A DNA stretch of 64,000 bases from Octopus vulgaris (taxonomy: Eukaryota), in the NCBI GenBank assembly GCA_951406725.2, contig OX597814.1, positions 92,256,001 through 92,320,000 on the forward strand, given 5' to 3'. The notes below the pieces were generated by a model. It was not told the origin of the DNA and made no database searches. It saw nothing but the letters and a program-made list of their open reading frames with translations. Shown here piece after piece: positions 23,759 through 60,431 of this stretch. Made by a program: the position numbers and the translations under genes. The number at the start of each line of letters is the position of its first letter. Position 1 is the stretch's first letter.

Positions 23759-23830
<72 letters not shown>

Positions 23831-23837
<7 letters not shown>

Positions 23838-24137
23838 TTGTATAAAGTCAACATAACGTGACAGTCCCGTAGAGGGAATTACACCACCGCTATATAGCCC
23901 TAGGAAGCATCAACGCTTCCTGTCGGCTTTGACACATTTGCTGTGTCCTTATATTTGCAAAGGGGAGGCAAGCATCCCCATCAGCTAGAACTAGCAGCCT
24001 GGAGACACGCATGTTTCTGGGTCTTTCCCGTCGTCAGTCCAGGGTAGCGTGTCCTCGATGCTTTCTAGGGCCATTTAGCGATGGTGTAATTCCCTCTACG
24101 GCACTGTCACGTTATGTTGACTTTATACAACCACTCT
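23831..24137. mobile_element. Small Penelope-associated-like element with 81-bp inverted arms
   Basis: 23831-23911 pairs with 24057-24137; lies between (TA)n(GA)n and (TA)n; encloses a hammerhead. Confidence 0.75.
23998..24043 (-). ncRNA. Type I hammerhead ribozyme motif
   Basis: Minus strand cctgga-CTGACGA-cgggaaagaccca-GAAA-catgcgtg-TC-tccagg; 6-bp stem I, GUC site, mismatch at base of stem II. Confidence 0.75.
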
Positions 24138-24186
24138 ATCGCTCCACCACCGCTCATGTCTCGTTGAGACATTTAGAAATTCAGTA

Positions 24187-24281
<95 letters not shown>

Positions 24282-37228: not shown

Positions 37229-38125
37229 ATATATATATATATATGCATACATACATATATACATACATATATGCGCACACACACACACTTTTGGCTTTGG
37301 TTCACTGGTAGTTGATAATATACCTCATAGTAACCCCAAATCGTTTCGAACTTACATGCCGATGCTCCTTTTTATTTTGTTTTGTTTTTTTTTTTTTCGT
37401 CTGTGACAAAATCTATTTCAAATAGTGGGAAAGTACGATTATTGTCGAAAGAGGTCTTTGTCGATAACATTATTTGTTTGTATCATACTATTTGGTTACC
37501 CGTTGTATTTCTTTTGAGCCTTTGTGTGATTACAGAACTAACCATAAACAGAAAAAGAATTAAAACCAGCATCACCCACACGGGGCATGCTCTTCTGTGT
37601 TTTCTACCTTTAGGTATGGCTATTAATTAGATTATCTCATCTTTCTTTGCTATGAATTCATCAAAGATTTGTGTTGTTTTACTTACTTTTCTTTTCTTTT
37701 TACTATCGTTTTTCCTTAAATCTCCAAACAATCTATATCTTTCATCCAGAGAATTTTGTTTTCACCTTTGAGCTGTCCTTGTAGTTGTCATCGTTTCAAT
37801 TTTTATATGGCATTAAAATTACATTTTTGTCTCTAAGTATCCAGATACCCCAACGGTTTGCAGAACTGGTGCAAAAACAATTAGTTTTAAATCTCTGAGC
37901 GATAAGTAAGTAGTAACAGTAAAATCTATTTGCCAATGTAAAGTGGCAGTCCTGATTAGGACAATGTTACTACCTTTTTAGCCCCAGGAAAATATTTTTC
38001 CGAATTTGTTTAAATCTGTATGGAATAATATATCAGTTGAATAAAGTTACAACGTGGTCTGTTTTTCACGTTTATTAATATTGTATTTCAGAAAGATTTG
38101 AAGTGTGCTAAATATTTAAAAAAAA

Positions 38126-38372
38126 GTACAGTTCTATATTTGAGAGATGAGGATTTATGTACATTATTTACATTTGACGGATATTTGTCCTCATCTTGTT
38201 TGTTGTTAACATAACATTTCGGCTCATATACTCTGCGTGCAGCATTCATCAGGTGTCTTGGGGAAATTTCGAACCTGGGCATATGGCGTAGTGGTTAAAA
38301 GCACGGGCTACTAACCTCAAGATTCCGAGTTCGATACCAGGCAGTAACCTGAACAACAACAACAACAACAAC

Positions 38373-38430
<58 letters not shown>

Positions 38431-38570
38431 GCATCGAACAATACCTTAGGAATGAGAAGCTAGGTTCGAAATTTCCCCTAGACACTTGATGAAGGCTGTA
38501 GAGTATATCAGCCGAAACGTGTTAACAACAAACAAGACGAAGACAAATATCTGTCAAATGTAAATAATGT
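38126..38570 (+). mobile_element. Composite element: inverted arm, tRNA-derived head, (AAC/AAT)n, hammerhead-bearing arm
   Basis: 38161-38276 pairs with 38462-38570; A box TGGCGTAGTGG and B box GAGTTCGATACC at 38277-38345; TTGATGA-a-ggctg..cagcc-GAAACGT at about 38483-38525. Confidence 0.75.
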
Positions 38571-38999: not shown

Positions 39000-41000
39000 A
39001 TCATTGTTGTTATTTCCGTTCAGAACACGTCTGAACATTTTAATGAAACGTCTTTCTTTTATCTCTCTTCCAGCCTCATTTGTGTCATGCAGTTTGTGAA
39101 AAGAAACAATTAGAAACATTTTTGACCACATATTCTATACGTTCGCTCAATGGAATTTGGCGAACATTATTTTTCCAGATTTGTTGTCTTTGAACTCGTG
39201 AGATTTCCGATAATGCATTCCCTGTCTCGACAATGTATAGTTCCTCGCAGTTAGGGAATTTAATGCAGTAGATCAAATTTCTACTTTTGCAATTCATATC
39301 TGCATTTGTGAAAATCTGACCCATTCTTTTGTTCTAAAGGATCTACTAGTACGCATGTATTGACACGATCCACTTCTGTTATCATTACACTTGGGCACTG
39401 TGAATGTTTTATCGTGTTAGTTCATGTTGAATTTTGCCTATGTTAATAGTTTCTTTAGGTTATGTGGCTGCCTTTTGCTTAAGATAAGTGTTTGATTAGT
39501 TATTATTTTTTTTAATTTTCCATTTTGTTTCATGGTTCGCAAATTTGTTTTGACGATGTTAAAAATGTTTTGATGATGCGGATTGTGTATTACTAGAAAT
39601 GGTATTGTGTTGATGGGTTTGTCTTTTTCGTGTTGCCCTAAGTTGTTTTATAGGTATGACTTTTGCTCGTTGTATAAGTCGTATGTCCTACTACTTGGAT
39701 CATCAGCTATAGTACTGGCTAGACAGTAAGTACGGGATGTTGCGTTTCGTGTGTATTGAGTGGCATGATTTGATGTTTAGGTGCTGGTGAGTATCTGTGC
39801 TTTTGCAATAAATATCAATTGTGATTGTGGTGTTGTTTTAATTGCTATGTCAAGAAATGGTAATTGTGTATTGCTCATTTCTCCTGTGAATTTGAGTCTA
39901 GATTGTAGATTGTTGAGGAAGGTGCTGAATTCTTCCAGATTTTCTAGAGATTGGGTCCAAATTAGGAAACAATCATCGAGGTATCTGTTCTATGTGTCCT
40001 CTATATGCCTTGTAAAGACCATGCCATAGTTTTCTTCAATTTTTGATATAGGTTTTGTTCCAAGTGTCCCAATACTGAGTTTGCGAAAACTGGAGCAAAT
40101 CGTGCCCCCAAAGATGTACCTCCAATGTGGAGGTGTTTTTTCTGTTGGAAAGAAATGTATTGTTCTCGAGGATGAGGCTGACCGCGTCTAGTTTGAAGGT
40201 TACAGTAAATTTACTGTGGGTCACTTCTCGATGTTTCTCGACCCAATATTTTATGGAAGTATGATTCCCAAATCATGTGGAATTATCATATATAAGTTTG
40301 TTACATCAACACTAACAGTGAATTGGATCCTGTTGCTTTGAGCAGATGTGACAGGAAATCAATGTCATCCCGAATGAAACTGGATATGTGACTACATAGA
40401 TGTTTTAGGATAATGTCAATGAGGTTGCTCAGGTGATGTGTTGGACAGGCTCGACCAGCTATAATGGGTCTTAGTTTAAGGTATTTTGGTTGTAGTAGTT
40501 TTATGTATTCACTATCATTTTGTGTTTCTTCTGATATGCATTTTAGTTGCTGGATTTCGAATCAAAATTGGTAATGTAGTCCCTTTCATTAGGAGTGAGA
40601 GAGTTATAATGCTTTAAGACTAAATAATTGAGTTTCTTCATGATGTGGGAGTCAATATGTACGGGTATTTCACGGTAGAATGTTCCATCCTTCAATTTAC
40701 CTTCAGCTAAATCTCGGTAATATTCCGTATTCATTATAACATTGGCACCCCCTTTTTCCGCTTGTTTGATGACAATTCTGTTGTCATTTTTAAGGCGTAT
40801 AAGGGCAGACTTTTCTAATTTTGAAATGTTTGGTCTGACGTTGATGTTATGCCTCAGTGGAAATACGGAGAGGATATCAATGAACTGATCTAGATGTGCA
40901 TTTCGTCCTCTTGGCGGATTAAATTTTTGATTTATTTTTCACCAAGGATTCGTCATTTTCATATTTTTATCAGTAAAAACTGCATAAGTCGTATTAGTTT
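39000..41000 (-). pseudogene. Decayed Penelope-like element ORF (RT plus GIY-YIG endonuclease)
   Basis: Minus strand IVIKQAEKGG, LRPIIAG, VDVTNLY, RYLDDCFLIW, LPFLDI, CKSRNLIYCIKFPNCEELYIVETG; many stops and frameshifts. Confidence 0.88.
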
Positions 41001-41860: not shown

Positions 41861-42281
41861 AGGCGCAGGAGTGGCTGTGTTGTAAGTAGCTTGCTTACCA
41901 ACCACATGGTTCCGGGTTCAATCCCACTGCGTGGCACCGTGGGCAATTCTCTTCTGTTTTAGCCGCGAGCCGACCAAAGCCTTGTGAGTTGATTTGGTAG
42001 AAGCCCTCGTATATGTGTGTGTGTATGTATGTGTGTGTGTGTGTGCGTGTGTATTATGTATGTGTGTATATGTTTGTGTGTCGTGTTTGACCCCCCAACA
42101 TCGCTTCACAACCGATGATGGTGTGTTTACGTCCCCGTAACTTAGCGGTTCGGCAAAAGAAGCCGATAGAATAAGTACTAGGCTTACAAAGAATAAGTCC
42201 TGGGGTCGATTTGCGCGACTAAAGGCGGTGCTTCACTATGGCCGCAGTCAAATGACTGAAACAAGTAAAGAATAAAAGAAT
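41859..42281 (+). mobile_element. SINE family B
   Basis: A-box-like GTGGCTGTGTTG, B box GGTTCAATCCC, internal microsatellite, A-rich tail. Confidence 0.85.
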
Positions 42282-42444
42282 ATATATATATATATAGTGA
42301 CGTATTTTTGCCATTTCAATATGGCTAACCCCTAAGTGGATGCTACTGTAGTTTTTAGCCCCAGGAGGACACACTCCTCCAGCTGGCCATAGACACACTT
42401 TCTGTGTCCTGTCAGTATTTGCAAAGGGAAGTCATCCTTCCGTG

Positions 42445-42503
42445 TATGATACACACGGACTCGAGTTTCGAGGTATTGACCTCGTCAGCGTGTGACAATC
42501 ATA
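42445..42503 (-). ncRNA. Hammerhead motif with 2-nt deletion at stem II
   Basis: Minus strand cacacg-CTGACGA-ggtcaatacctc-GAAA-CTCGAG-TC-cgtgtg. Confidence 0.6.
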
Positions 42504-42709
42504 GTTGTCGGCGAAATTAGATTTCCTTCACAAATACTTATACTTTTTCCAGCGTCCACTGTCGCTGATATTGAAAAAGTGAAATCAAACAATGATAAGT
42601 ATAGATACAGTAGCGGTAACACATCTGACGTATTTTTGCCATTTCAATATGGCTAACCCCTTAGGGTGGATGCTACTGCAAAGGGAAGTCATCCTTCCCG
42701 TCTTCAACT

Positions 42710-42770
42710 TATGATACACACGGACTCGAGTTTCGAGGTATTGACCTCTCGTCAGCGTGTGACAATCATA
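42710..42770 (-). ncRNA. Type I hammerhead ribozyme
   Basis: Exact reverse complement of 43141-43201. Confidence 0.85.
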
Positions 42771-43140
42771 GTTGTCGCGAGAATTAGATTTCCTTCACAA
42801 ATACTTTATACTTTTTCCAGCGTCCACTGTCGCTGATATTGAAAAAGTGAAATCAAACAATGATAAAGTATCAAAGTGAGTTATATACAGTAGCGGTAAC
42901 ACATCGTGTCGTTTTTGCCATTTCAATATGGCTAACCCCTTTAGGGTGGATGCTACTGCATCCACCCTTAGGGGTTAGCCATATTGAAATGGCAAAAATA
43001 CGTCACGATGTGTTACCGCTACTGTATATAACTCACTTTGATACTTATCATTGTTTGATTTCACTTTTTCAATATCAGCGACAGTGGACGCTGGAAAAAG
43101 TATAAGTATTTGTGAAGGAAATCTAATTCTCGCCGACAAC

Positions 43141-43201
43141 TATGATTGTCACACGCTGACGAGAGGTCAATACCTCGAAACTCGAGTCCGTGTGTATCAT
43201 A
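43141..43201 (+). ncRNA. Type I hammerhead ribozyme
   Basis: cacacg-CTGACGA-GAGGT caat ACCTC-GAAA-CTCGAG-TC/cgtgtg; stem I extends via tatgat/atcata; predicted cleavage after 43188. Confidence 0.9.
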
Positions 43202-43493
43202 AGTTGAAGACGGGAAGGATGACTTCCCTTTGCAAATACTGACAGGACACAGAAAGTGTGTCTATGGCCAGCTGGAGGAGTGTGTCCTCCTGGGGCTAAA
43301 AACTACAGTAGCATCCACCCTTAGGGGTTAGCCATATTGAAATGGCAAAAATACGTCACGATGTGTTACCGCTACTGTATATAACTCACTTTGATATTTA
43401 TCATTGTTTGATTTCACTTTTTCAATATCAGCGACAGTGGACGCTGGAAAAAGTATAAGTATTTGTGAAGGAAATCTAATTCTCGCCGACAAC

Positions 43494-43554
43494 TATGATT
43501 GTCACACGCTGACGAGAGGTCAATACCTCGAAACTCGAGTCCGTGTGTATCATA
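43494..43554 (+). ncRNA. Type I hammerhead ribozyme
   Basis: Identical to 43141-43201; predicted cleavage after 43541. Confidence 0.9.
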
Positions 43555-43755
43555 AGTTGAAGACGGGAAGGATGACTTCCCTTTGCAAATACTGACAGGA
43601 CACAGAAAGTGTGTCTATGGCCAGCTGGAGGAGTGTGTCCTCCTGGGGCTAAAAACTACAGTAGCATCCACCCTTAGGGGTTAGCCATATTGAAATGGCA
43701 AAAATATGTCACGATGTGTTACCGCTACTGTATATAACTCACTTTGATATTTATC

Positions 43756-43811
<56 letters not shown>

Positions 43812-43883
43812 TAAAAACGGTAAGATAACAAAAGAAAGAAAGAGACCTCAATATTATGTAAATAGAGGAAATTTATCTATAAA

Positions 43884-45593
<1,710 letters not shown>

Positions 45594-55333: not shown

Positions 55334-58300
55334 TCATAGGATTATGCTCAAGGTGGCTTCGTCATTCATACGTGCCATTCTTGCTACATTCACCCATCTT
55401 TTTTTTAAACATTCGCTAGACAAAACTTGCCTCTCTACTCTCACTTTCCTTTTCAAGTGGTACTTGAAGAAGTTGATGAGAGATTGACCAGAGAGGAAAG
55501 TGTTTGTCTCCAATCCTTTCAGACGCGTCCACCAGATACATTCTTTCGCCATAGCCACAAGGATGATGAAAATAGCTCTTCCTTCCCGTTTGAAGGAAGG
55601 AGGCGTGACAATATTGACGATAGACTCAGCTGATAAACCGACTCGTCCCACACGTGACAGCAGTTGTTCGACATAAGCCCACAGGTCGGAAATTGTTGGA
55701 CACTGCACGAGTGCGTGCAGAACGGTTTCGTCGCTCTGACCGCATCTCGGGCAGGTCGGCCCCGTGTTTCTCGAGCCGTGTCTGTAGAGCTTATCCCGAA
55801 CGGGTAGCGCTTCTCGGTAGCACTGCCCGGCCAGGGATCTCTGGAAGTTGTCCATGGGCCCTGGCCCGAAAGTCGTCCTGAACAGGCGGGTCAGGTACTC
55901 CTCGTCGACGTCCAGGTTCGCCCCGAGCTCGTCGTCGTACCTCCCCTCCACTAAACCCCTATAGAATGCTTTGGTTGTGTTGAAGTCACTCAAGGTCGAC
56001 CCGGGACGGCAGAGTTGCTTGAGAGCAACGCGACACTCGCGGTGCCATTCGCCCTTCCTCGGCCTCTTTTTGATCCACGACTGCAGTTCGGTCATGGAGA
56101 CGAGCTGCGGGAAAGCGTGCCTCACAAACGGCGACCACACCTGTTCACCGTCGTCTACATAGAGCCAGAGATGTCGCAGTCTCAGTGCGTGTCTGCGCAT
56201 CATCAACCACGGCATGCCCAGCCCTCCTTTTAACGGGTGTTGACAGCAAATGGATCGCCTGACCATCGGGACGCATCCTTTCCACAAGAAGCGAAAGAGA
56301 ATGCGTTGTAGTTTGGTGATGGTAGGGTCGGGACAAGGTACGACGGTCAGGCGGTAGTAGATGACGGACGCGATGTACGTGTTCGCCACCTCCGCCCGAC
56401 CTTTTAGGGACAGTTTCCTCTCGGCCCATTGCCGGGCGAGAGTGACCACCCTACTCGTTATCTCGTTCCAGTTCTTCTCCACTTGGAGGTCCGGACCAAA
56501 CCAGACCCCGAGCAACTCAACCGGGCCGTCGGTCCAGCGTCCCACGACGGAGGCGCTGGTGGACGGCATGGGCTTGCTTCTCCAGGTGCCTAGTCGCAAG
56601 CCCACTGACTTTTCCCGGTTGATTTTCGCTCCTGTCACCGCTTCGTAGTTTTTCAGTGTCTCGCCGACCTGCTCGATGTGCTCGTGGCTAGACACTATGA
56701 CGGTGACGTCGTCCGCGTATGCAGACACGCTCGTCCCGCATCCCAGTTCTCGCGGGATGCCTCTCAAAGTTGCCAGCTTCCGCAATAATGGCTCGAGAGT
56801 CAATACGTATAGAAGCGACGAGAGGGGGCATCCCTGACGGACCGAACGTGCGATGTCGAAGGGTCTCGATAGATGTCCATTCACGCGAATTACCGAACGG
56901 ATGCCTCTGTACAAAGCGGCTATCCAGGAATGCTCCCGTTTTGCTGCCAGTTGCAGTACACCGCCGCCAAGAGATCTCCAAACAAGACTGGCATACAATT
57001 GTAAAGCTCGTAGGGTAGACCATCCAAACCCGGTGATTTGTCCCCCGAGCATTCTGCCATCGCTTCCTGCACTTCCGCCGCCGTGATGGCACCTTGGCAG
57101 CACCCTGCCTTTCTTGTCGAGAGTCGTGGTAGGCTATGTAGGTAGGCACTGAAGTCCACCCTACGTTCTTGCCCTCCACTCGTTCCGAACAGTCGGGCAA
57201 AATGCTGCTGAAAGGCCTCACACATTTTACTTGGCTCGAGCAATTCGCGCCCCTGTTCATCTACCAGGAACCGAAGGGTGGCTTTGTTGCCCTGTTGCGC
57301 CTCTGCCACCCGGGCCTCTCTCGCGGCTCCAACACCTTCGTTCCTTAGAGCACGCATCCTAGCTCTGACAGCACATCCTTCGTGTTTGGCGTTGAAGTGT
57401 TGGTCGAGGGCCAACCTCGCCGCCAAAACGTCGGATGCGATGCCGCTTCTAATTGCCTCTTCTAGCTTCTTAACTAGCTCACCCACTACTCTATTTCTAT
57501 CTATGGCTAGTGCTTTGCTGTACCTAATCGCTTCTGCTTTTACTGCTCTCTTGAGGGCAAACCACCATTTGTTGTTGATGATGGCTCCCGTCAAAGCCCT
57601 CTTTACTAGTGTGCTAATCCGGTCTCTGAAAACCTGTCTCGATGGGAAAGACGCGTTTAGTTTCCAGTATCCGGGACCCTGCCTAAGTGTCTTACCTAAG
57701 TCTAGCGTACATGTCACAAGTTTGTGATCCGTGTAGCTGACTATGTGGAATTGTGGACATCCTATGCTATCTCTGTCTACTGTCCTACACAGTATCCTAT
57801 CTAGATACGATCTCGACGACCCGATGCGGTTGCTCCATGTCCACGTTGGCGCATTCGGGTGGTCTAGTCGGAACCTGTCAGACAGTTGAAAGCGTCTGAG
57901 CAGGTCTCTGAGACATTTGCATCCCCGTCTATTCCTATCTCTACCCACGTAGTCTACATGCGTGTCCAAGGTAACATTCCAATCCCCCACTAAGAGTAAA
58001 GGACGAGACGTTCCCAAGAATACTTCTAGACGTTGAAAGAAATCCGCCCGACCTGATACGAGTCGAAAAGCGCACCCATTGCTGCCGTCGACATCCAGGA
58101 CGACCAGTCTACCCTCCGGGTCTACGAATGTCGTCCTTACTTTGAGATCCAGGCTCTTGTGAAAAAATGCCGCGGTGCCACTACCGCCCATTCTCGGCAG
58201 ACAGGGGGGAAAATAAATGTTGAACTGTCCGCCAAACATGGTCTTTAGGGCCCGCGGATTGTGGAGTCTGGTCTCAGTTATGGCTATGATTTCTAACTTA

Positions 58301-58383
58301 TGTGACTTTATGTCATTTAAGAGGTACCTTTGTTTCCAAGGGGACCCCAAGCCACGCGCATTTACACAACCAATCTTGATCAT
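55334..58383 (-). pseudogene. ORF2: APE endonuclease, reverse transcriptase, CCHC; broken near 56925
   Basis: GCVNARGL, ITETR, VGDWN, SYLDRIL, TDHKLV, KSPGLDG, VRQGCPLS, YADD, CPRCGQSDETVLHALVQC; frame change at 56920-56935. Confidence 0.9.
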
Positions 58384-58427
58384 AGTCCTAATGAATTAGA
58401 ATACAAGTGAAAGGAACAGAGGGTTAC

Positions 58428-60431
58428 TTACTGCTCGAAAATTTTTGCTTTCTCCTCCTTTGGTTTGTCCTCGAGGAGGTCCCAGTACAGTTTCTTTGTG
58501 AGATATTTTTGGCATTTACCAACCGCGCTGGGGAAAATGCCTTTGAGTGTGTGGTGCAGACTTTTGGAGATGTGTAATATTTTGATGTGGTCTGGTGGTG
58601 TTGTGTATGGGTGATTGTTTGTTTTTATGTCATCTTCTGTTATGTTTGTTTTTGATTGGATGTATTCCATCAAATTTGTGTTTTTGGTGTCTATAGCTGT
58701 GAGCATGTTTGCTGTATATATTTTTGTGGTGTTGGTGTGGCTGTTGTTTGCGTTGGGTTTTGAAATGTCTTCGTGAGGTGTATTTCCCCCTGCTTTGTTC
58801 GTGTTTGCATTTGGTTTGGTTGTGTTTCTGCTCTTTATTTTCCTTCTTTTTGTAGCTATTTGCCATTCCTCACTGGTTTCGTCTTCCGACGAAATTTCTG
58901 AGAATCAGTAGGGGATAGGGGTATGTTGTGGGCTTCTATGTATGTCTGTGTAAGTGGTTGTGTTGTTGTTTTCGTTGTTGTTGGTTGTTGAGTGTTTGTG
59001 TGTGTTGAGTGCGGTATAAGGGATGGGGGATCAGTTTGTGTGTGTTTTCTTTGTTTTTCTGTTCCTTTGGGTTTTGCTGTTGTTGGTGGTGTTGGTATTT
59101 TTTCAGGTGTTGGGTGGTTTTTGGTTGATGACGGATTAGCTTGGTGTGCTTCTCTTGTCGTCTTCTGTGTTGATGGTGGTGTGGGTAGTAGAACTTTTTT
59201 TCCGGAGTGCTTTGGTTGTGGTAGTGGTTGTTGTTGTTGCTCTTGGTGTGCAGTGGTTGGGCACGTCTTTTTCAAGTGTGTTTCGCTTCCACACAAATAG
59301 CAGCGTGGTCGCCTGCCCTCTACCACTATATAGAGTTTGTAACCTCCTGGCAGTTCTATAGCGGTGGGTATCTTCTCTCTTGCTGCTTCATCCAATTGAA
59401 GCAGGAATTCGATTGATTTGCCCACATAGTCTTTCTCTCCTAGAACCGCGATTTCAAGGATGTTTGTCTCTGACATTGTCTCTGTCATTTCAAAGCAGAT
59501 GGCAGAGACCAACCATTGTGTTTCGACTTCAAGTGGTATGTTTTTTATTTGGACTTTCGTGACCCTTTTGTTTAAATAGACTGGTATCATTACCAAGTCG
59601 TCCGAATGCAGCTCCAATGTGGAAAAACGTTTTGCTAAACTTTCGTTGAGGAAACGTACTTGGACTGTACCAAATTTGTTTCCCCAACTGATATATTCCT
59701 TGGAGTCCCATGCAGGACGAAGGCATTTTTCGATTTTTTCCTGCGGTGCATTTTCTGTTCTTCTTGTTTTCTTGTTTATTACTTTATAAATTATTGTTTT
59801 TTTTTTGTGTGTTTTCTACGATGTGTTGTGGAATGTGAAGGTGCAATTTGTCTCCTTCTTTGGAGAAGAGTGCCTTTGTGCGGTTTATTTCTTGTGTGGT
59901 GAATTTTACAATTGTTCTTTTTTGTTTTGTTACGTCCGCAAAATTCGTTTTGAATTTGGCAGTAGAAGCGTTAATTGTGGCAGTTGAAGTCATGGTAGTG
60001 GTGTTGGTGTTGGCGGTATTAGCAGCAGAAGGCTTAGATGTAGCATTTGACGTCGTAGTAGTGGTGTTGGTGTTGGCGGTGTTGTCTTTGGTAGGCGGCT
60101 TTGTGCCAATTTCGTTGTTGTTGTTGGTGGTGGTGATGGTGGTGGTGCTGGCATTCATGTTTTCGTTTGTATTCATTTTTGAAATCCCTTTCTCCGTCCC
60201 TTTATCATCAACAAGTGGTGTGAGGAGTGAGGGGAAATCTAAGTTAATGTCTTTGGTCGCGGCGATGGTGAATGCGACGTTAGTTTTGTTGTTGTTGTTG
60301 GTGGTGGTGGTGATGGTGGTGACAGCGGTGTTCACGCTGCGATGTTTAGCAGCTAGTGGTAGCAATAGTGTTTTGCTACCGTTCTGCATGACTGGCGGGC
60401 TAGCCACGTGGTTTCTAGTTGCCATTTTCAA
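58428..60431 (-). pseudogene. ORF1, gag-like with zinc knuckle, frameshifted
   Basis: CYLCGSETHLKKTC (CX2CX4HX4C) in 58856-59617; Thr/Asn-rich N-terminus at 59784-60431; split across frames. Confidence 0.75.

Follow-up and report, generated by a model that had tools for sequence, protein, structure and literature searches.

A 353-nt hammerhead repeat of Octopus vulgaris, very probably a retrozyme, with paired Penelope-type insertion ends

Insertions of a non-coding 353-nt hammerhead repeat of Octopus vulgaris end at two internal sites that are used as a pair, and not at the predicted ribozyme cut, a feature overlooked by the initial annotation of the 64,000-nt stretch of DNA analyzed here (the window; contig OX597814.1, positions 92,256,001 to 92,320,000). 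We regard it as very probable that this repeat belongs to the metazoan non-LTR retrozymes. The class of element is already known; what the 353-nt family provides is a record of its own insertion reaction. With rather better than even confidence, we propose that it is a non-coding hammerhead retrozyme inserted by a Penelope-like enzyme that primes at both sites on one RNA, probably a 353-nt circle.

Structure of the array and its hammerheads

The array lies between a left (TA)n target (42280..42296) and a right one (43759..43808) and consists of two arms, described here with units numbered so that u1, at 43189, is the nucleotide immediately 3' of the predicted cut. The right arm (42958..43758, plus strand; u123-353, u1-353 and u1-217) is a tandem repeat with a 353-bp period, 2.3 copies and 99% matches, and its 3' end corresponds to a position that we call site B (43758). 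The left arm (42297..42958, minus strand; u118-353, u1-46, u118-353 and u1-171) has its 3' end at a second position, site A (42297), and both of its passes start at u118. The 46-nt segment between sites A (u171) and B (u217), the "tail", is present at the right end only (43713..43758, plus strand). The two arms meet in the motif GGATGC-TACT-GCATCC (42948..42963), a near-symmetric, snap-back-like inversion junction at which the left arm begins at u118 and the right arm at u123; matches to miRNA families at this position were rejected as artefacts of the palindrome. The left arm has accumulated 12 indel events over 667 nt, or 18 per kb, the highest rate among the arms scored (on average 1.2 per kb), which may reflect hairpin-related decay or consensus error.

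Our analysis identified four hammerhead motifs in the window array. Three of them, at 43150..43194 and 43503..43547 on the plus strand (predicted cuts after 43188 and after 43541) and at 42717..42761 on the minus strand (predicted cut 42723/42722), are intact type I motifs that match RF00163 with 32.2 bits each (E 1.1e-5), while the fourth (42452..42494, minus strand; predicted cut 42458/42457) is damaged by a 2-nt loss at stem II and scores 26.7 bits. The near-identical plus-strand copies, the type I hammerheads, the fold-back near 42957 and the (TA)n on both sides of the array were all present as the initial annotation had described them. The Rfam scan that it had proposed does match Hammerhead_1, at scores below the gathering score of 34, and Rfam profiles at their gathering thresholds gave zero matches in the window; its two further minus-strand copies are indeed an inverted arm, but not two full copies; and the predicted monomer or circle at 43189..43541 (plus strand) is a complete cut-to-cut 353-nt unit, but the sole one in the array.

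The hammerhead at 43150-43194 is composed of stem I (CACACG/CGUGUG), CUGACGA, stem II (GAGGU/ACCUC), GAAA and the self-complementary ACUCGAGU. In a covariation test based on a few related sequences (6 copies) and on a structure specified by the analyst, 95% of 102 cells were paired and 7 of 17 pairs had changed on both sides, compared with 52% paired in the best slid control. A relaxed hammerhead pattern matched 877 times genome-wide, and among the first 100 of these matches stem III was ACTCGAGT in 52, ACTATAGT in 38, ACCTGGGT in 6 and a one-base variant in 4, being self-complementary in 96; a further copy carries ACTGCAGT. All four main forms are self-complementary, one of them through G-U pairs, which fits the expectation for a hammerhead acting as a dimer (PMC4209133). 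Since the stems covary and stem III is always self-complementary in these forms, the ribozyme cleavage step is predicted.

When folded as a circle, the 353-nt unit reaches -116.9 kcal/mol (z -6.7, 100 shuffles), and the hammerhead is absent from the minimum-energy fold of both monomer and circle. The longest ATG frame on the closed unit has 38 codons, and no protein-coding ORF (RT or GIY-YIG) was found in the unit or the array, so that the repeat is not itself an autonomous Penelope-like element. We also identified three 358-nt sister units in two subfamilies, 59-69% identical to the 353-nt unit, that close on themselves, end at the matching two sites and likewise give circular folds with strong pairing (z -2.6 to -4.0, four units folded); across sister units, 17 of the 82 pairs of the whole-unit fold are compensatory. 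Judging from these sequences, the lineage is an old RNA under structural constraint with a young burst, rather than a fresh stump. The sister subfamilies (L262-L264, on contig C1) have U at core position 3 and G at position 8, a wobble, where the young 353-nt family has a C3-G8 pair, and the activity of the two kinds of hammerhead may differ.

Several other elements lie nearby in the window. The right TA run is shared with an adjoining unrelated and older fold-back element (43809-45485) with arms about 85% alike and a hammerhead-like motif with a CCGAAGA core in each arm (45392, plus strand; 43972, minus strand); its family also flanks locus L075. A short hammerhead element with an inverted arm is found at about 23830-24190 (motif at 24042, minus strand) and has a distant likeness to u24-74 (76% over 51 nt). 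By eye, we also recognised a decayed relative of u100-220 at about 37890-37995 (minus strand) and a further hammerhead-like inverted repeat that surrounds an (ATT)n run at 38150-38560. Finally, long frames of 319, 491 and 599 aa at 55337-59815 (minus strand) presumably belong to a LINE-type retrotransposon, which they resemble.

Genomic distribution and insertion anatomy

The 353-nt family is young and dispersed on many contigs of the 2.8-Gb assembly. A DNA search with the unit yielded 2415 candidates; among the 40 that were scored, nearly all full-length units are about 99% identical. The exact 45-nt hammerhead occurs 407 times genome-wide and its reversed control 0 times, which excludes chance. 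Contigs C1-C3 (624 Mb) hold 95 exact hammerheads, predicting about 427 genome-wide, and because 407 were observed we conclude that there is no large satellite block in the assembly. The family shows several of the features by which retrozymes are recognised, namely at least two consecutive hammerheads in units of about 170-400 nt (here a 353-nt period, in arms of up to 2125 nt), non-coding sequence without LTRs, and dispersed mobile copies (the 407 exact hammerheads, together with target duplications). The sequence is also represented in 20 public runs from 10 studies under seven organism labels, none of them listed as an RNA run, with 73-97% of the words sampled from the unit present. In two runs of one study, the unit is spanned by contigs of 383 nt (353 + 30) (runs X5 and X6; RNA status guessed), a length equally expected from a circle or from tandem DNA and therefore not used as evidence. 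The inversion joint of the window was not among the 15 of 19 joints listed from run contigs, and one loose end in these contigs proved to be a single diverged non-autonomous copy and not a parent element. We found no published description of the 353-nt family in the literature covered, which lay outside subscription papers, supplements, Repbase and Dfam.

To describe how copies end, we analyzed 82 loci, comprising every exact-hammerhead match on C1-C3 (57 loci), 24 score-ranked loci and one taken by chance, a sample in which copies lacking an exact hammerhead are under-represented. Insertions present twice together with their flanks (L032/L037 and L014/L015), which are segmental or assembly duplicates, were counted once, L037 being dropped and L015 treated as a duplicate of L014, and the complex locus L061 was not classed. 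Over these loci, 3' ends cluster at site A (u171-174) and site B (u216-221), 46-49 nt apart, an interval that corresponds to the Penelope "tail". With classing windows of u165-176 for A and u212-223 for B, 36 of the 41 independent inverted loci are A+B, none is AA or BB, and five have one odd end; all 36 inverted loci with two canonical ends are therefore A+B (0.5^36 = 1.5e-11). The 39 single-arm loci end at A (29), at B (5) or elsewhere (5). As in Penelope-type insertion, targets are AT-rich or microsatellite DNA (a TA run adjoins 110 of 123 3' ends), duplications are short (7-11 nt at three of the four non-TA sites checked), poly(A) tails are absent, and two fixed 3' ends are combined with an inverted, 5'-truncated second arm. 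We read the inversions as twin priming with occasional snap-back, and we consider paired priming at A and B likely. We found no published account of such obligate A+B pairing within the literature covered, subscription papers and supplements excepted.

The same end pattern recurs in autonomous Penelope-like families of this genome, which also contain the minimal hammerhead form. One young family, NepA, was reached via locus L013, has copies 97-99% alike, and matches RVT_1 (E 2e-8) and GIY-YIG (E 8e-4). We tentatively call it Neptune-like, because of its C-terminal endonuclease and of a CxxC motif before GIY-YIG, as is found in Neptune, Nematis and Naiad endonucleases (PMC8557442). Three further families (NepC, NepD and E) have long open frames, and NepB is older. 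The two ends of NepA are spaced by about 35 nt, and a long end occurs with a short one in all 7 inverted loci that show both; NepD pairs long with short in 10 of 10 loci picked as opposed pairs, and in 10 of 11 with the addition of locus L236, which is short at both ends (AA). Over three families, A+B pairing is found in 53 of 54 loci. The genome-wide anatomy thus supports the retrozyme reading of the initial annotation, and the fixed 3' ends, 5'-to-5' inversions, (TA)n targets, short target duplications and the recurrence of the A/B pattern bear out the Penelope-type helper that it had suggested. Penelope-type mobilisation of the 353-nt retrozyme is, in our view, highly likely.

None of the five Penelope-like families examined has sequence likeness to the 353-nt unit, and no RT ORF was linked to the unit, in frame or in sequence, at the 82 loci. 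At one chimeric locus (L013/L101, C17:47.711-47.714 Mb), a 5'-truncated NepA copy and a retrozyme array meet 5'-to-5' and have no TA separating them; TA runs bound the whole block, and NepA ends at its own long end while the retrozyme ends at u270. This single locus, weakened by the odd u270 end, hints at NepA as a helper of the retrozyme. Other candidate associations were rejected: no Penelope ORF lies between two C2 hammerheads that are separated by 3.25 kb; retrozymes beside Penelope copies at L079, L110 and L154 look like separate insertions at a shared TA run; and sister hammerheads spaced by 1.38 kb correspond to a local tandem duplication with no tblastn match to four Penelope proteins.

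The window itself contains a broken Penelope-like RT/GIY-YIG ORF (39000-40923, minus strand), 27-55% identical to NepA by piece, of which NepD, located elsewhere in the genome, is a young intact relative (775-aa frame, 4271-bp tandem period). In NepA and NepD the coding sequence is mostly split into two overlapping frames (L235, L239, L143 and L145), which an intron or a programmed frameshift might explain, and one NepD copy has a single 1199-aa frame. Close protein relatives of NepA filed as bacterial gill symbionts of bivalves (P0027, P0067, P0072, P0075, P0081, P0098 and P0118) are likely host DNA in the symbiont assemblies.

Template, proposed mechanism and alternatives

Allele composition and junctions provide information on the template. 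At seven common polymorphic sites, allele pairs agree in 1664 of 1691 comparisons within loci and in 741 of 749 across arms, compared with a mean of 71% and a maximum of 76-77% in shuffled controls (2000 shuffles), although the pairs are not independent and post-insertion conversion could also homogenise arrays. Mixed haplotypes occur in 5 of 71 multi-pass loci. Locus-private substitutions are present in every covering pass (13), in one pass (137) or in some passes (6, including the u209 variant of the window). The variant of L070 has six genomic matches, all within L070 and in both arms, and the haplotype of L111 is also unique in the assembly; two other genomic matches to the L111 variant are unrelated haplotypes, and its source unit was not found there. 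The 181 junctions across the cut site are exact in 179 cases and carry one substitution in two, with no indels. Five of 123 5' ends were flagged near the cut, against 2.4 expected; on inspection, three of them start at least 4 bases upstream, one is ambiguous and one lies at u2, and 5' ends do not pile up at the cut. Given the seamless junctions, the lack of a 5' pile-up and the allele agreement, the template was unbroken through the cut site and mostly of one haplotype, that is, a circle or an uncut multimer. A circular template appears fairly probable to us.

In the mechanism that we propose, arrays would be transcribed and paired hammerheads would cut after GUC, freeing 353-nt units that a host ligase would close, as suggested by PMC7229834. 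A Penelope-type GIY-YIG/RT protein, likely a dimer, would make a staggered cut in (TA)n, with one DNA end priming at A and the other at B, a step for which the ends, their pairing and the duplications are observed. Each cDNA would then cross the cut site, often several times, to give tandem units of one haplotype, as a circle would allow, and the two cDNA ends would be joined by microhomology or by a short snap-back, producing the inversion. Priming from a single end would occur mostly at A, as the 29 of 39 single-arm loci suggest. More tentatively, and with somewhat less than even confidence, the two Penelope start sites may be the halves of one dimer reaction, in which the protein places the two ends of a staggered DNA cut on one RNA, at A and at B respectively, a circle yields double rolling-circle copies and the retrozyme, recognised by its shape, borrows an active Penelope family. 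If this were true, retrozyme arrays would be direct fossils of double rolling-circle reverse transcription, and the retrozyme would be an old independent lineage, recognised by RNA shape and not by shared pLTR sequence.

Penelope paired priming would remain unchanged if the template were instead a linear transcript that reads through a multi-unit array and is left uncut, with any circles as a side product, an alternative that we consider rather unlikely. It would equally predict that junctions are seamless and that 5' ends do not accumulate at the cut, and the anole Penelope protein used mainly uncleaved RNA as its substrate in vitro (PMC11167929). In L070, the two arms, each read from its outer end, carry their unit variants in one order (G,C,G,G and G,C), and therefore a multi-unit template fits this locus better than a monomer circle; the variants common only to the inner passes in L042, L089 and the window also speak for it. 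Yet arrays copied from linear RNA would shorten at each round, whereas at least five distinct haplotypes include arms of 1.3-2.1 kb, there is no sign of a master array, and the two haplotypes present in all passes (L070 and L111) occur nowhere else in the assembly. Furthermore, unit length, rod-like fold and ribozyme have been kept over 30-40% divergence.

A different origin of the inversion, in which the cDNA folds back and copies itself and the tail comes from resolving an intermediate (Arkhipova et al., 2013), seems improbable to us as the general explanation. There are more near-symmetric junctions than chance would give (11 of 41, with 5 expected; p 0.008), so self-priming contributes, and in its favour are also the hairpin junction of the window and the variants that, in several loci, the two arms have in common in their inner passes. 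Nevertheless, the other 30 of 41 junctions are asymmetric, arm lengths are uncorrelated (Spearman about 0), either arm may be the longer (the A arm in 24 of 36), a pure copy of an A arm cannot gain a B tail, and both sites serve as RT starts in vitro (PMC11167929). That the array consists of stumps (pseudo-LTRs) of an autonomous Penelope, or is an assembly fold-back, is already largely refuted and can retain only a very small probability: its anatomy equals that of Penelope stumps and the left arm is unusually rich in indels, but the 181 junctions show the unit closing on itself with a length of 353 nt, no RT ORF link exists at the 82 loci, and the sister subfamilies keep a closed 358-nt unit. 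Misassembly, which the initial annotation had named as a possible refutation, is answered by family-wide anatomy, since a read fold-back predicts like ends and mirrored flanks, and both the end sites and the flanks differ between arms, in the window as in the family.

Relationship to known retrozymes and Penelope-like elements

Metazoan non-LTR retrozymes have units of 350-390 bp in mussel and of 330/350 bp in axolotl, and their circles have been demonstrated in mussel, coral and axolotl, with Penelope as a strong helper candidate (PMC7229834). The octopus repeat resembles them in its non-coding tandem unit of about 350 nt with one type I hammerhead each, its self-paired predicted circle, its dispersed copies and the presence of Penelope elements in the genome. 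It differs in that their cleavage and circles were established by experiment whereas the octopus unit is known from its sequence and predicted fold, and in its fixed ends and inversions, which are not described for those retrozymes in the parts of PMC7229834 consulted; the words octopus, cephalopod and microsatellite are absent from the main text of that paper. A 2026 preprint (10.64898/2026.07.22.740005) argued for a Penelope origin on the grounds that, in 31 vertebrates, 3 insects and a coral, the two kinds of element occur together and the repeats resemble pLTRs; its consulted sections include no mollusc and no analysis of insertion ends. It also reported that only one of nine predicted Xenopus retrozyme dimers cleaved, which counts against the proposed ribozyme step, as do the Rfam score below the gathering threshold and the lack of a hammerhead in the best fold. 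The preprint and our analysis agree that such repeats depend on Penelope elements; in contrast to that work, the octopus unit has no similarity to the Penelope pLTRs examined, and the link is insertion anatomy. The helper of retrozymes has thus earlier been argued from co-occurrence and sequence likeness, while here a Penelope footprint is found on the insertions themselves.

For Penelope elements, the tail and the inversion are known and have been called optional, or in many cases confined to one end (PMC3846280; PMC8557442). In PMC11167929, the tail was linked in vitro to two internal positions at which the RT starts, cleavage affects both DNA strands and the protein is predicted to act as a dimer; the start sites were alike on both strands, and paired use is not proposed in the consulted text of that study. 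Self-priming was the preferred source of inversions in Arkhipova 2013 (PMC3846280), inversions were listed as unexplained by Craig et al. 2021 (PMC8557442), and the consulted portion of a review (PMC11722881) contains nothing further on insertion ends. The 353-nt family shares with endonuclease-bearing Penelope-like elements the two 3' end points, the inverted 5'-truncated second copy, the (TA)n or AT-rich targets, the short duplications and a hammerhead upstream of the start sites, and it differs from them in having no ORF and a tail of 46-49 nt instead of 30-40. Similarly, it shares with the minimal Penelope hammerheads (PMC4209133) a helix III that is short and has a palindromic loop, together with predicted dimer action, and departs from that form in its canonical 6-bp stem I, 4-5-bp stem II and 8-nt stem III region. 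The strict A+B pairing over the three families turns the "optional tail" into a rule and speaks for twin priming rather than self-priming as the chief origin of inversions in Penelope elements. Together with the evidence for a single template, this pairing rule opens both the mechanism of Penelope insertion and the life cycle of the retrozyme to direct tests.
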